Part shown: positions 17,401-25,386 of the stretch, one piece after another
How positions within the stretch are numbered: position 1 is the stretch's first letter
How the letters are laid out: each line of letters begins with the position of its first letter
DNA from: Candidatus Poribacteria bacterium
GTDB taxonomy: Bacteria > Poribacteria > WGA-4E > WGA-3G
Length of the DNA: 64,000 nucleotides
Direction: 5' to 3'
NCBI GenBank assembly: GCA_963665235.2
Contig: CAXXLX010000001.1
Location: 1,184,001 to 1,248,000 of the forward strand
Translations under genes and position numbers: made by a program
Notes under the pieces: generated by a model
Databases searched by the model: none
Seen by the model: only the letters and a program-made list of their open reading frames with translations
Told to the model about the DNA's origin: nothing

Positions 17401-18582
17401 ATGGAATACCGTTCAAATATCTTATCAGACAAAATCACACTTAATTTTGATCGTGATGCCCAAGTGTCTGTCAAAGCCTTCATCGCACCGATTGAGCATA
17501 CGGTCTCCAATTTCCACGTCGACTGGGACGCATTGGCAAATCTACGCGTCACTGAACCAGAGAAGCGGTATCCCACATCAATTTTTCAGTCTTTTCTTCC
17601 ACCGGAACCGGTTTCAGTAGGCGAATGCTGGCAGATTGAAGAAGTGGGTGTTACGGAGTTGCTTCGGCAGCTGCATCCAAATCCGAAATTAATAGAAACA
17701 CACATTGATACCAATGATTCACGCGGGTTGTGGGGATGTCTCCGCGCATACAACGATAAATTTGCTGACATCACCTTTCGGATTCACGCAGCATTCGACT
17801 TTGAAGATGGGACGCTAACACCTTCACAGTTTAAAGGAAATCTGATAATTGACAGGCGTGAAAATAAAGTAACCTTCTTCAAAATGTACGTCCCTGAAGG
17901 CACAGTTAACCTCGATATCACTTGGAAAAAGGACAAAGAGCAGCTTTATAGAAGCACAGATGCAGGTCTATGTTCCCAAATGGAACTCCGTTCAGGAACA
18001 GAAGACGAAATGCAGAATGCTGACTTCACGGAAGCGATAACACAGAAAGAAGCGGAACGGGCACTGATACTTCGTTTCTACGAAATAGCGCAGATAAATT
18101 GGGTGCCCCCGGAGAAAGCAGTGGAATTGGCCGAGGAGCAGGTGAAGTTCATTCATGTTATCTCTATAGACGGACCATTACACGATGAATCTTGCTGAGG
18201 GAGTGGAAAAGGCTTGAGGGCAGTTGTCCTCTACTGGGATAGAATTATCGAATTTCTGAACGAAAACTTTATTAACACATGGGTTTCCAACGTTGAGTTA
18301 GAACGGACCCCTCGAAAGCAAACCTACATGGCGAAAAGACCTAAACGTAAATCCAAAACGTTTAATAGAACACATCCCTTAGCACAAGCCGTTATGAAAG
18401 GCTGGAAAAAAGATTCACCCGTAGATTGTTTAGTTATTTCCCCTGAATTTGATGTGATGGGAAAACTTCCACTTAATGATTTCTTTGATGACTGTTCGCA
18501 AAAGGATATTCCACAAGAGGATGCCTACCTTACCTTTCTCACGGAATCCTTAGAGGGTAAATTTCCGGGATTTGCCGAATGA
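17401..18582 (+). CDS. Selenoprotein N-like protein copy 1 (393 aa; Sec UGA at 18196-18198)
   Basis: ORFs 17401-18198 and 18214-18582 are in one frame, joined as DGPLHDESC-U-GSGKGLRAVVL...FLNENFINTW; SECIS-like hairpin at 18216-18231. Confidence 0.9.
18216..18231 (+). promoter_or_regulatory. Putative bacterial SECIS hairpin (copy 1)
   Basis: GAGGGC-AGTT-GTCCTC, stem starts after a 17-nt spacer 3' of the UGA. Confidence 0.7.
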
Positions 18583-18677
18583 CTGGCAAAAGTGCATCCG
18601 AAAACGTGTATAAGCGAATCATTGCTTCTTCTGATAGCAATGGTATCCTATACCAAAAAGGAAGTTCATAACGAAAA

Positions 18678-21852: not shown

Positions 21853-23802
21853 ATGAAATCGACATCAAACAAAATAGGGCTCAATCTTGACCGTGACGCA
21901 GAAGTCAACGTCAAAGCCTTCATTGCACCGATCGAACATACGATATCCGGTTTCCACGTTGAGTGGGATGAATTGGCGAATTTACGCGTCGCCGAACCGG
22001 AAAAACAGCATTCCGCATCCGTTTTCCAAGCATTCCTCCCAGACGACCCCATCTCAGTTGGCGACCACTGGCAGATTGCAGGAGACAGTGTGCTGACATT
22101 ACTCCAGCAACTGCATTCCAATCCGAATTTGGATATACGCATCAATTCCGGTGATTCTCGCGGATTATGGGCATGCCTGCGCGCGTACAACGATAAATTC
22201 GCCGACATTGTATTTCGCATTCACGCGGAGTTCAAGTTCGAAGAGGGTCGGTTTACCCCCTCACAGTTTACGGGACACCTCGTGATGGACCGACTCGGAG
22301 AAAAGGTCGCTTTTTTCGAGATGTACGTCCCTGAGGGACCAGTAAACTTTGATGTTAGCTGGAATTCCATTGTCGATGCCGGCCTTTGCCCCCGGATGGA
22401 ACTCCGCGTCGGGACACAGAACCCAGTCCGAGATGCTGAATTCACAGAGGGGTCTATCACCCAAGAAGATGCCGAACGTATCCTGCGACGGCGTTTCTAT
22501 AAATGGGAAAAAATTAACTGGGTACCGCCGGAGCAGGCACTGGAAATAGCACAAGCCCAACAGAAACCGATTCATGTTATCTCAGTAGACGGACCGCTCG
22601 CCGATGAGGCGTGCTGAGGGAGCGGCAAAGGCCTGAGGGCAGGTGTCCTCTCTTACGATGAAACTATTGAATTCTTGAATGAAAACTTCATTAATACCTG
22701 GGTGTCGAATATCGTATTAGAGCGGACATCCAAAATGCGTAACTATGCAGTAAAGAGATTTGAAGATGGAGACAGAGCACTGTTTAACAAAACCCATCCA
22801 TTGGCAGAAGCCGTGATGAAGGGATGGAAAGCACATTCACCCGTAGACTGTTTGATTATATCGCCAGACCTTGAATTGATGGGCAGCCAACTCGTCAACG
22901 AACTCCTTGGTGCTGGCAGGAGTCTGTATAGCGATTACCTCACATTCCTCAAAGACTCCTTGGAAGGGAAACAGCCCGGATTAGGAAACCTCACTCTCAC
23001 CAGAGAATCTCCTTCACAGGCGGTGTTGGACGTTTTTCGGACCCCCACAGTCGGTTATCAAGACTATACCGTTGTTGTAATTGATACCATCGACTTTGAA
23101 AATGGTGGTACACTCGTTATTGACATTGAAGTCGGTAGAGATGAAGGGGAAGGTGAAGGTGCGTTCTATCTGTTTGACAGCAATACCGAACTTTCCACAG
23201 ATGCAGAAACCCCTAAAAACGTGCTTACGCAGAGATGGGTTGAAGCCGGTGCCACAAAGCAGCTCACACACCGCTTCAAGCACGGTCAACGTTTTAAGTT
23301 AGGTGCCACCGGTGATTGGGAGAGAGACGAACCCTCTGTCAATGCTTTCCGCGTAACAGCTTCTGTCCAGGAAAATTCAGATGAGGACACTTCAGATATA
23401 CTTTCAGCTGACTGGCGTGTTCCACTCAATAGGGCACACTCATCGGTGGAAATACAAGCTCTTTTTCGGGCACCGGGACACGGTTATCAAGATTACACCG
23501 TCATCAATATTGATACAACAGCGTTTGAAGAGGGGGGCACCCTCGTCATCTACGTCAAGGTCGGGAATGGAGACGCTGCCGGTTCATTTGATCTCTTTGA
23601 TGGCGACGCAGAACTCCCGACAGAAGGAATGCCTGAGGAAACCCTCGCCTCGTTCTGGGGGCTTGACCCCGATACAGCCACAACAATCCGCCATCATTTC
23701 GAGCAAGGCGAAGTTTTTAAACTCGGTGTCACCGGTGCTCAGTCCAGTAAAATAGGGGACACAAATACCTTTTACCTAAGGATTTCTGTAGAGGAAAACT
23801 AA
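21853..23802 (+). CDS. Selenoprotein N-like protein copy 4 with two C-terminal repeat domains (649 aa; Sec UGA at 22615-22617)
   Basis: In-frame join DGPLADEAC-U-GSGKGLRAGVL. Confidence 0.9.
22635..22650 (+). promoter_or_regulatory. Putative bacterial SECIS hairpin (copy 4)
   Basis: GAGGGC-AGGT-GTCCTC. Confidence 0.75.
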
Positions 23803-25386
23803 GTGAACCCTAAAATCACGCTTAATCTTGATAGCAACGCAGAAGTGTCCATCAAAGGCTTCATCGCACCGATCGAATACACCCAATACAACTTCCACGT
23901 GGAGTGGGACGAATTGGCAAACTTTCAGGCTGCTGAACCGATAAAGCGGTATCCCGCATCGGTTTTTCAAGCATTTCTACCATCAGAGCCGGTTTCAGTG
24001 GGTGAATGCTGGCGGATTGGAGAAGAAAGCGCACTAACACTCCTACAACAACTGCAGCCTCAGCCAAGACTAAGACTGGATACCGATGACGAGGAATACA
24101 CCGGAATATGGGCCTGTTTACGGGCCCACAATGATACACTCGCTGACATCGCATTCCGCGTGCATGCAGAATTCATCATGAAGAGCGGCAAATTCACGCC
24201 ATCACAGTTCGCAGGGCATTTAGTTATAGACCGAATTCAACAGAAAATTGTGTCTTTCAAAATGTTCGTGCCGCCAACAACACTCAACTTCGATGCCGGT
24301 TGGAAACAGGAAAATGGAAACTATTTTGCGGAAATCGGGTATTGCCCACAGATTCAACTCTCTGCGGGAATATATCCCGCTGATGTAGAATACAAAACAG
24401 CAATCACACAGGAAGAAGCAGAACGCAGGCTAATATCACATTACTACATGTTCCACAAAATTAACTGGGTATCGCTTGAGGAAGCGTTTGAACTCGCTCC
24501 TATTCAACAGAAACCGATACATGCTGTCTCATTAGATGGACCGCTTTTCGACGAATCGTGCTGAGGCACCGGCAGAATCTTGAGGACAGGTGTCCTCTCT
24601 AAAAACGCAATTATGGAATTCCTGAACGAAAATTTCATCAACACATGGGTCGAAAACGCAGAATTGGGACGAACAGGCAGCTTGCAAGACCCTATTGCAA
24701 AAAGACGGAAGCGGGAAGGAAAAACCTTCAACACAGACCACGCATTAGCACGAACTATTATGAAAGGATGGGTAAAAGGTTCACCGGTAGATTGTTTCGT
24801 TATCTCACACGATTTTGAACTGATGGGGAGTGTAGACTTCAACGAATTCCTTGACAACCTGCAACGACCTGAGGATGAACCTGTGGCATACATGCAATTT
24901 CTCAAGGATTCATTGCAAGACAAACGCCCCGGACTCGGGGACATCCTCCTTACCCCCGAGCAACCTTCGCAAGAGGTAGTAGACACCTTTCGTGCCCCAA
25001 AGATGGCGCATCAGGATTATACCGTTGTCTACATCGATGTCACAGCGTTTGAAGATGGCGGCACACTCACTGCTAACATCCAAGTCGGTAGAGACAGCGG
25101 AATAGGCATCTTCCATCTGCTCGACGGCGACAAAAAACTTCCAACAGAAAAAGTGCCTGAGGGCATTGCCCCTGAAAAATGGAACAACCAAGAAAGCACT
25201 GAATACGAGAAAGCCCTCGACGCGCTAACTAGAGTCTGGGGTATATTTCCCGGTCAAACCGGACAAATAACCTATCAGTTCAAGCGTGGTCAACGCTTTA
25301 AGCTCTGTGCAACCGGAGACCAGTGGGGTGGAGTAGGCGACATAAACGCTTTTCACGTAAAAATTGCTGTGGAAGCTGCAGACTGA
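23803..25386 (+). CDS. Selenoprotein N-like protein copy 5 with one C-terminal domain (527 aa; Sec UGA at 24562-24564)
   Basis: In-frame join DGPLFDESC-U-GTGRILRTGVL. Confidence 0.9.
24582..24597 (+). promoter_or_regulatory. Putative bacterial SECIS hairpin (copy 5)
   Basis: GAGGAC-AGGT-GTCCTC, a perfect stem. Confidence 0.75.

Follow-up and report, generated by a model that had tools for sequence, protein, structure and literature searches.

Five tandem genes in a 64,000-nt stretch of a Candidatus Poribacteria genome (assembly GCA_963665235.2, contig CAXXLX010000001.1, positions 1,184,001 to 1,248,000; the whole stretch is called the window here) each carry an in-frame UGA that is followed, at a constant distance, by a short hairpin. 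The encoded proteins are related to animal selenoprotein N (SELENON), and we refer to the genes as SelenoN-like. Each hairpin is very probably a selenocysteine insertion sequence (SECIS) of the bacterial kind, specific to this gene family and predicted to be read by SelB. Bacteria that use SelB to decode selenocysteine (Sec) require such an element inside the open reading frame (ORF). Adaptation of these genes to bacterial SelB decoding had been proposed in the initial annotation of the window, and the proposal is supported by the decoding machinery present in the genome, by the fit of all five hairpins to the bacterial SECIS (bSECIS) model, and by covariation in the stem together with silent sites that are frozen.

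The five genes and their hairpins

The features are listed below by window position. The genes are named g1 to g5, and their hairpins are also called copies 1 to 5.

g1, 17401..18582, + strand: SelenoN-like selenoprotein gene; 393 aa through the UGA; TGA stop; 57% identical to g3
g1 Sec codon UGA, 18196..18198, + strand: context DESC-U-GSGK
g1 hairpin GAGGGC-AGUU-GUCCUC, 18216..18231, + strand: 17 nt after the UGA; -8.9 kcal/mol; fits the bSECIS model
g2, 18678..20673, + strand: paralogue with two lesions in the assembly, an extra in-frame TGA (18789-18791) and a 10-bp tandem duplication (20400-20419)
g2 Sec codon UGA, 19455..19457, + strand: from pattern match and reading frame
g2 hairpin GAGAGC-AGGU-GCUCUC, 19475..19490, + strand: -9.5 kcal/mol; fits the bSECIS model
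g3, 20663..21817, + strand: SelenoN-like selenoprotein gene; 384 aa; TGA stop
g3 Sec codon UGA, 21422..21424, + strand: from pattern match and reading frame
g3 hairpin GAGGGC-AGGU-GUCCUC, 21442..21457, + strand: fits the bSECIS model
g4, 21853..23802, + strand: SelenoN-like selenoprotein gene; 649 aa; two extra C-terminal repeat domains
g4 Sec codon UGA, 22615..22617, + strand: context DEAC-U-GSGK
g4 hairpin GAGGGC-AGGU-GUCCUC, 22635..22650, + strand: fits the bSECIS model; RNAfold favours a competing long fold
g5, 23803..25386, + strand: SelenoN-like selenoprotein gene; 527 aa; TGA stop
g5 Sec codon UGA, 24562..24564, + strand: context DESC-U-GTGR
g5 hairpin GAGGAC-AGGU-GUCCUC, 24582..24597, + strand: fits the bSECIS model

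The pattern TGA-N17-GAGRRC-AGKT-GYYCTC has exactly five matches in the window, at 18196, 19455, 21422, 22615 and 24562, all on the + strand, and none in 100 dinucleotide-preserving shuffles. The 17-nt spacer, the 6-bp stem and the 4-nt loop that had been described after every UGA are therefore as stated, arms and loops included. Each of the five UGAs is in frame, one per tandem paralogue, and lies inside the motif DE[SA]C-U-G[ST]G[KR]xLR. The hairpin itself is translated: the codon frame over it is (C/T)T[G AGG GC]A GGT [GTC CTC], which reads L-R-A-G-V-L. A search of the 5.3-Mb genome against itself found no copies of the family other than these five.

The differences among the copies had been described as compensatory and as altering amino acids. 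The first part holds, since the changes preserve pairing, but not all of them alter residues. The G-C to A-U switch of copy 2 (AGG to AGA, and the third base in GTC to GCT) is at third codon positions and silent; changes of residue occur only at the neighbouring pair, where copy 2 has Ala for Val and copy 5 has Thr for Ala.

Fit to the bacterial SECIS model

The bSECIS consensus (bSECISearch, Zhang and Gladyshev), as the available part of PMC13188914 gives it, asks for 3-9 nt in the loop and 4-16 bp in the stem, for G as one or both of the first two loop bases (the next base is mostly G or U), for a UGA-to-loop spacing of 16-37 nt and for an energy of -7.5 kcal/mol or lower. Our implementation of the model considered contiguous stems only. 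All five Sec sites of the window fit it, with a spacing of 23 nt, a 6-bp stem and, for the isolated hairpin, an energy of -8.9 to -9.5 kcal/mol; the loop is AGGU in four copies and AGUU in one. None of the four other TGAs in g1-g5 (the stops of g1, g3 and g5 and the extra TGA of g2) fits, and of the 503 TGAs that end long ORFs in the genome 30 (6%) do.

The element is equally regular among relatives. At 125 distinct UGA sites, the hairpin is present in 122, G occupies position +28 (the U of the UGA being +1) in 123, and 120 fit the bSECIS model. The loops at these sites are AGGU (73), AGUU (39), GGGU (11) and ACGU (2). The comparison of the AGUU loop of copy 1 with AGGU, called for in the initial annotation, thus identifies AGUU as a common variant. 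In sum, the element shows every tested feature of the general bacterial SECIS model and lacks only the bulged U of the E. coli type.

Like the consensus, the element is a stem-loop inside the ORF right after the UGA, with G second in the loop and then G or U. Unlike it, the window element is very short, with a perfect stem free of bulges, and its sequence is nearly fixed across a gene family. Its position is also exact to the base, with no insertion or deletion in 95 aligned sites and the same register in 125. A second comparison is with fdhF of E. coli K-12, in which the annotation had placed the string CAGGU; we fetched the sequence and found it there. When folded, fdhF has the loop GGUC at +22..25, with U18 unpaired. 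It resembles the elements here in having adjacent G and U in the apical loop; CAGGU is common to fdhF and the main family, and GGUC is also the loop of a distant SelenoN-like subfamily. It differs in that its loop begins at +22 and its stem reaches down to the UGA, whereas here the loop begins at +27 and the consensus leaves the 17-nt spacer unpaired. By function the element is very probably a bacterial SECIS, and it is new as a family-specific member.

Decoding machinery and proposed mechanism

The genome encodes the apparatus for Sec decoding. A selB gene was found at 357 bits (cut-off 242), with model positions 1-579 of 581 covered, and its product has the Pfam domains SelB-wing_2 and SelB-wing_3, the latter at the extreme C-terminus. 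A tRNA-SeC gene (78 bits, anticodon TCA) lies 77 bases downstream of selB. Also present are selA (601 bits) and selD (359 bits), the latter with an in-frame TGA of its own.

In the mechanism we propose, a ribosome at the in-frame UGA would have the 16-nt stem-loop, which starts 18 nt further on, just outside its mRNA entry channel. Through its C-terminal winged-helix domains SelB would bind the apical part of the hairpin, where the feature recognized may be the invariant G at +28, then G or U, then U, that is, a GGU or GUU codon. SelB-GTP would deliver Sec-tRNA(Sec), with anticodon UCA, to the A site, and Sec would thereby be inserted beside the Cys of the C-U redox pair in the thioredoxin-like domain. 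Read-through would be expected to depend on both the stem and the loop G.

Covariation among relatives

Covariation was scored in a gap-free alignment of 95 distinct sites from 30 or more genomes (set A2). Cells of the 6-bp stem are paired in 93.0% of cases, as against 42-83.5% in registers slid along the alignment. The +2 slide scores as high as 83.5% because the 3′ flank repeats CUCUC. Both partners change in three of the six pairs (24 cells). The covariation score, 0.183, compares with 0.138 in shuffles, and none of 500 shuffles reached it. RNAalifold, applied over 78 nt, predicts this hairpin alone. Two structures seen in individual folds drop out accordingly: the long alternative fold of g4 (-19.9 kcal/mol) was rejected as a functional element, as it is not conserved by RNAalifold, and so was a lower helix joining the UGA region to about +58, which appears in single folds (a distant subfamily, and g3) and is not retained.

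The register has some freedom within fixed limits. The +2 register (5 bp, 8-nt loop) is available to a variant with Glu in the 3′ arm, and, extended to 7 bp with loop GGUC, is used by a subfamily 32-36% identical. In every register the stem starts from +21 and G-(G/U)-U stands at +28..30. Subfamilies at 32-45% identity keep the stem with the same starting base, and the form with 7 bp and GGUC has GGU at +28..30.

Several of the double changes are silent at the protein level:

Pair 4, G-C to A-U: g5 compared with its orthologue L028 (GAGAAC/GUUCUC)
Pair 1, G-C to A-U: L058
C-G pair of the 7-bp register, C-G to U-A: L122, L123

On a tree of 84 genes, built with the hairpin region left out, pair 4 shows double switches between G-C and A-U on 5 branches and single switches between A-U and G-U on 11. 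An A-C mismatch at this pair was not seen, against about 5 expected by our arithmetic from the column frequencies if the two sides were independent.

Homologues without the UGA

Several observations weigh against a SECIS function, and they are best considered together. Folding energy does not single out the element. Pieces of 65 nt, folded alone along the lines that the initial annotation had proposed, do no better than their shuffles (z = 0.76, -0.76, 0.99, -1.65 and 0.36), so that the significance of the hairpin comes from comparison with relatives and not from energy. The minimum free energy (MFE) fold holds the 6-bp hairpin in copies 1, 2, 3 and 5; in g4 it is the competing long fold of -19.9 kcal/mol, in which the UGA region pairs with the 3′ arm. 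The stem, being a perfect 6 bp, has no bulged U of the fdhF type, and the loop G is at +28 rather than at +22/+23 as in fdhF. The accessible text of PMC8704476 describes a bulged U in the upper stem as a feature of the E. coli fdhF type; the general bacterial model, in the part of PMC13188914 available, does not require a bulge. A search of Rfam over 17000-26000, with E up to 10, returned chance matches only. Finally, the stem is not confined to UGA sites. It is present in all ten distinct non-UGA sites with DNA (8 Gly, 2 Cys), compared with 122/125 UGA sites, and seven of the ten still fit the bSECIS model. One of the ten, the Cys form L143 from a metagenome (another lineage, GC 55%), has a 6-bp stem with loop GGUC and a compensating C-G pair: it uses CGA for Arg, with a compensating G opposite.

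Set apart from these points is a feature of g4 itself. Within 22615-22655 the string UGAGGG is present twice: one copy is at the Sec codon, and the other stands out of frame where the 5′ arm starts; because of this duplication the 3′ arm is able to pair with either copy.

Stems without a UGA suggest the alternative that survives best, although we consider it improbable: the hairpin would have a role that is independent of Sec or does not involve SelB binding, such as local pausing or anti-termination, akin to the eukaryotic element described below, would persist whether the residue is Sec, Cys or Gly, and the target of SelB would be something else. Its main support is the stem at 10/10 non-UGA sites, L143 with its compensated pair included. 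It can also draw on animal SELENON, which has a stimulatory hairpin beside its UGA despite a SECIS in the 3′ untranslated region (3′UTR), according to the portions of PMC8704476 and PMC2248747 at hand.

The histories of the non-UGA forms argue the other way. Nine of the ten sites have UGA orthologues at 71-87% identity, and because of this closeness the nine losses of Sec are taken to be recent. In one orthologue group of 21, twelve members have UGA and nine a Gly codon, GGA or GGC (one of the nine Gly loci repeats another). The only Cys form found inside the phylum is a fusion to an ECF sigma factor. UGA is found in each of its eight nearest orthologues (82-85% identity), and only two changes separate it from L119, the one closest to it in this stretch: TGA to TGC at the codon, and AGUU to AUUU in the loop. 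For L143, the nearest protein relatives are 57-60% identical and are cut at the UGA column, on which ground they are taken to be Sec forms. The search for Cys-type homologues outside the phylum gave one locus each in the scans of genome contigs and metagenome contigs, too few for a real test.

The loop also behaves differently from the stem once the UGA is gone. G stands at +28 in 7/10 non-UGA sites and in 123/125 UGA sites, so that it was lost at 3/10 of the former and 2/125 of the latter; the rows are related, and no P value is attached to the difference. By our own grouping of the rows, this amounts to about two independent losses of the loop G among about seven non-Sec lineages. All Gly forms keep the stem, with loops AGUU, AGUC or, in one lineage, AACU. 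Further points against a Sec-independent role are that RNAalifold predicts no second conserved structure beside the UGA, that bacteria with SelB need a SECIS in the ORF, and that this hairpin fits the bSECIS model. Retention of the stem in non-UGA forms is what recent loss combined with constraint on the protein would be expected to give; it also leaves room for a Sec-independent role.

Two further observations concern the losses themselves. Inside the phylum Sec has been replaced mostly by Gly (GGA or GGC), not by Cys (L048-L053, L060, L061, L064). In L064 the neighbouring Cys is gone as well and is now Ser, which would abolish the redox pair.

Selection at silent sites

A second alternative, which we regard as very improbable, is that the pairing has no RNA function and arises from codon preference and from conservation of the peptide L-R-A-G-V-L. 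The peptide is indeed conserved from bacteria to animals (LRAGVLS versus LRETALE and LREGPLE), and some pairs are fixed by the amino acids. Yet, given the peptide and genome-wide codon usage (AGR 19%, CTC 25%), the full stem is expected in only 2.1-3.0% of cases, and hence the hairpin is not a side effect of the peptide.

The codons chosen in the stem point in the same direction. Among 75 Sec genes, the Arg of the stem is encoded by the rare AGR codons in 75/75 (AGG 55, AGA 20), while CGN makes up at least 95% in each of five other conserved Arg columns. For the Leu of the stem, at codon +11, the counts are CTC 72 and CTT 2 (0.18 bit), whereas the other Leu columns listed range from 0.88 to 2.38 bit. 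Leu at codon +6 ends in G in 72/73 genes, and Ala at codon +8 is GCA in 67 and GCG in 6. Silent compensatory double changes at several pairs, as listed above, are likewise not explained by the peptide.

Reading of the UGA

Hardly any weight remains for the third alternative, that the UGAs are true stops of split genes, specify another residue under a different code, or belong to contaminating genes of a eukaryotic host: gene callers do cut at the UGA, leaving most database matches as pieces of about 255 aa, and one metagenome protein shows W at the site, but an open frame runs across the UGA in each of the 150 matches listed (with one in-frame TGA each, except two in g2), a single confident structural model spans the site (pLDDT 95.6), the Cys and Gly homologues are continuous, TGA is a normal stop in the genome because it ends g1, g3, g5 and 503 ORFs of at least 300 codons, and the flanks are bacterial on a 4.36-Mb contig. 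The flanking genes encode LeuC/LeuD, ribosomal protein L27, GMP synthase (GuaA) and a polysaccharide deacetylase. With the family found in 131/176 genomes of the phylum besides, host contamination, which the initial annotation had argued against, is excluded.

The metagenome protein just mentioned, P0122, has W at the Sec column (SCWGT). Its codon may be a genuine TGG, or else a UGA that was read by the gene caller under code 4.

The phylum search gave 819 matches, up to 13 per genome, these being counts of matches and not copy numbers. The family belongs to sponge-associated Candidatus Poribacteria, by the names that the sources give. An RNA run, X21, was considered as evidence of expression and set aside: it yielded only 4 contigs, matching at 90-99% likeness, from relatives.

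The SelenoN-like proteins

An exhaustive HMMER search returned 388 clusters at E up to 0.001, most of which stop exactly at the UGA column. Among the matches that span the site are a 'Selenoprotein N' of the hagfish Eptatretus burgeri (P0265, E 6.4e-19) and an EF-hand protein of Nematostella (P0252, E 3.0e-20). In the alignment, the bacterial SGKxLRAGVLS stands opposite the animal SG(R)TLRE..LE. The redox motif is SCUG in g1, g2, g3 and g5 and ACUG in g4; SCUG with Sec is a feature of SELENON (PMC12839072, in the part available).

Domain and structure databases gave little by sequence. Pfam found no family on any of the four window proteins scanned, and a sequence search of the PDB found nothing for the window proteins. 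A query of the ESM Atlas with the natural Gly-type protein P0003 returned only that protein's own cluster. In the AlphaFold model of g3 (pTM 0.91) the N-terminal domain is beta-rich and the C-terminal one is thioredoxin-like, with Cys253-Sec254 beginning the helix 255-262. The PDB folds nearest to this model are DsbH-like proteins, AGR2/AGR3, ERp18/19, DsbD-gamma and a UAS domain. The N-terminal transmembrane segment and EF-hand of the animal protein were not seen, the Pfam scan of the four proteins being empty and g3 beginning with its beta-rich domain. Judged from their sequences, g1-g5 are bacterial homologues of selenoprotein N without the animal transmembrane and EF-hand parts.

The C-terminal parts vary. 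After the SelenoN-like part there are one or two copies of a domain of about 140 aa (QDYTVV.ID..AFE.GGTL...), at 22975-23799 in g4 and also in g2 and g5; it matched no Pfam family. Elsewhere in the phylum, 702-aa proteins fuse an ECF sigma factor (Sigma70_r2, r4, ECF) to the SelenoN-like domain (L112:547-2616, which is G164:C1 and L113, with orthologues L114-L121). UGA is present in eight of the nine fusion orthologues, and Cys in the remaining one. An arrangement of this sort suggests a redox-sensing protein akin to a sigma/anti-sigma pair.

In g2, the frame is shifted by a 10-bp tandem duplication (atctatgttc twice) at 20400-20419. Contigs assembled from runs X1, X2 and X4 do not contain the 10 bp and show no other difference, and the duplication is probably an assembly error or a rare variant rather than a genuine lesion. 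The second in-frame TGA of g2, at 18789-18791, stands where all paralogues have TGG (the Trp of HVEWDELANL). Here the X1 and X2 contigs are identical to the window. No SECIS-like hairpin follows this TGA in the bSECIS model test; the choice is between a nonsense mutation, the gene being otherwise intact, and read-through with Trp at a low level.

Relation to animal SELENON

In animal SELENON a stem-loop just after the Sec UGA, the selenocysteine redefinition element (SRE), stimulates Sec insertion (PMC8704476; PMC12839072; PMC2248747, each in the part available). The initial annotation had drawn attention to this element. Both are stem-loops inside the ORF just after the Sec UGA of homologous genes, and the genes share the peptide SG[KR]xLRxxxL over the region. 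The difference lies in the apparatus, as the SRE acts with a 3′UTR SECIS and SECISBP2/EEFSEC, not with SelB. Among the Rfam matches over 17000-26000 (E up to 10) there is no eukaryotic 3′UTR SECIS. The two systems form a striking parallel: homologous genes with Sec at the same column and a hairpin after it, which in the bacteria very probably serves as the SECIS and in animals serves as an accessory to a 3′UTR SECIS.

A tentative idea, which we think rather unlikely as matters stand, is that the SRE and the bacterial SECIS are the same element by descent. SelenoN, at that time a Sec gene whose SECIS lay in the ORF, would have moved between bacteria and early animals or their ancestors, and the old stem would have survived as an enhancer of read-through once a 3′UTR SECIS took over. 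Compatible with common descent are the homology of the genes, Sec at the same column, the shared peptide over the stem and the persistence of the stem in bacterial Cys and Gly forms. If the idea is true, the family is a living example of the step from decoding of Sec within the ORF to decoding from the 3′UTR. With this family, direct tests become possible of where the UGA-proximal hairpin of SELENON, a disease gene, came from and of the shift of the SECIS from the ORF.

There are practical uses as well. For annotation, the hairpin is a marker of a very large family whose genes are truncated at the UGA by gene callers. A SECIS at a fixed position, with silent compensatory changes, offers a data set for training SECIS predictors and for probing what the SelB of this phylum reads. 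In the literature searched we found no paper joining Poribacteria with selenoprotein N or naming a SelN-like bacterial family; the family list of BSepDB may hold the family under another name. Two prokaryotic selenoproteome papers of 2026 do not mention it in the parts available, and their supplements may likewise list it under another name.

Other selenoprotein genes of the genome

A crude scan of the genome for read-through ORFs gave 71 candidates, of which 18 were tested. In 12 of the 18 one Pfam domain spans the UGA: an FdhA-like molybdopterin oxidoreductase, an HMA protein, five AhpC/TSA proteins, a ThiF protein, a thioredoxin-like protein with W-U-GWC, a DUF3179 protein, a geranylgeranyl-reductase-like (GGR-like) flavoprotein and a LarC-like protein. 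Four others (L095, L097, L098, L104) were set aside, being not single genes or without a family, and for L103 and L105 the Pfam test of the 18 showed no domain across the UGA. The selenoproteome of this genome (G000) is rich, with examples at C2:754533-757382, C1:2949221-2949691, C1:3283764-3284882 and C1:2894582-2896003.

Of 15 sites (14 candidates and selD), seven have a clean contiguous hairpin of 6-8 bp, with loops that start at +21 to +27 (GGG, GGU, GUU, GGC, GGA, CGUGCU and GGGCU). At the other eight the hairpins are weak or out of range in our simple search for contiguous stems. The SECIS hairpins of SelD, FdhA-like, AhpC/TSA, ThiF, GGR-like and HMA genes resemble the SelenoN-like ones in having small loops that begin with G and stems of 6-8 bp. 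Two AhpC/TSA genes have loops that differ only as GGU and GUU, the same alternation as between AGGU and AGUU. The spacers set the groups apart: they are 11-15 nt in these genes and 17 nt, the longest, in the SelenoN-like genes.

Upstream of the five genes, an ORF with an RRXRR domain (PF14239, E 2.9e-33) lies at 13096-14208, directly upstream of leuC and overlapping the annotated start of that gene.

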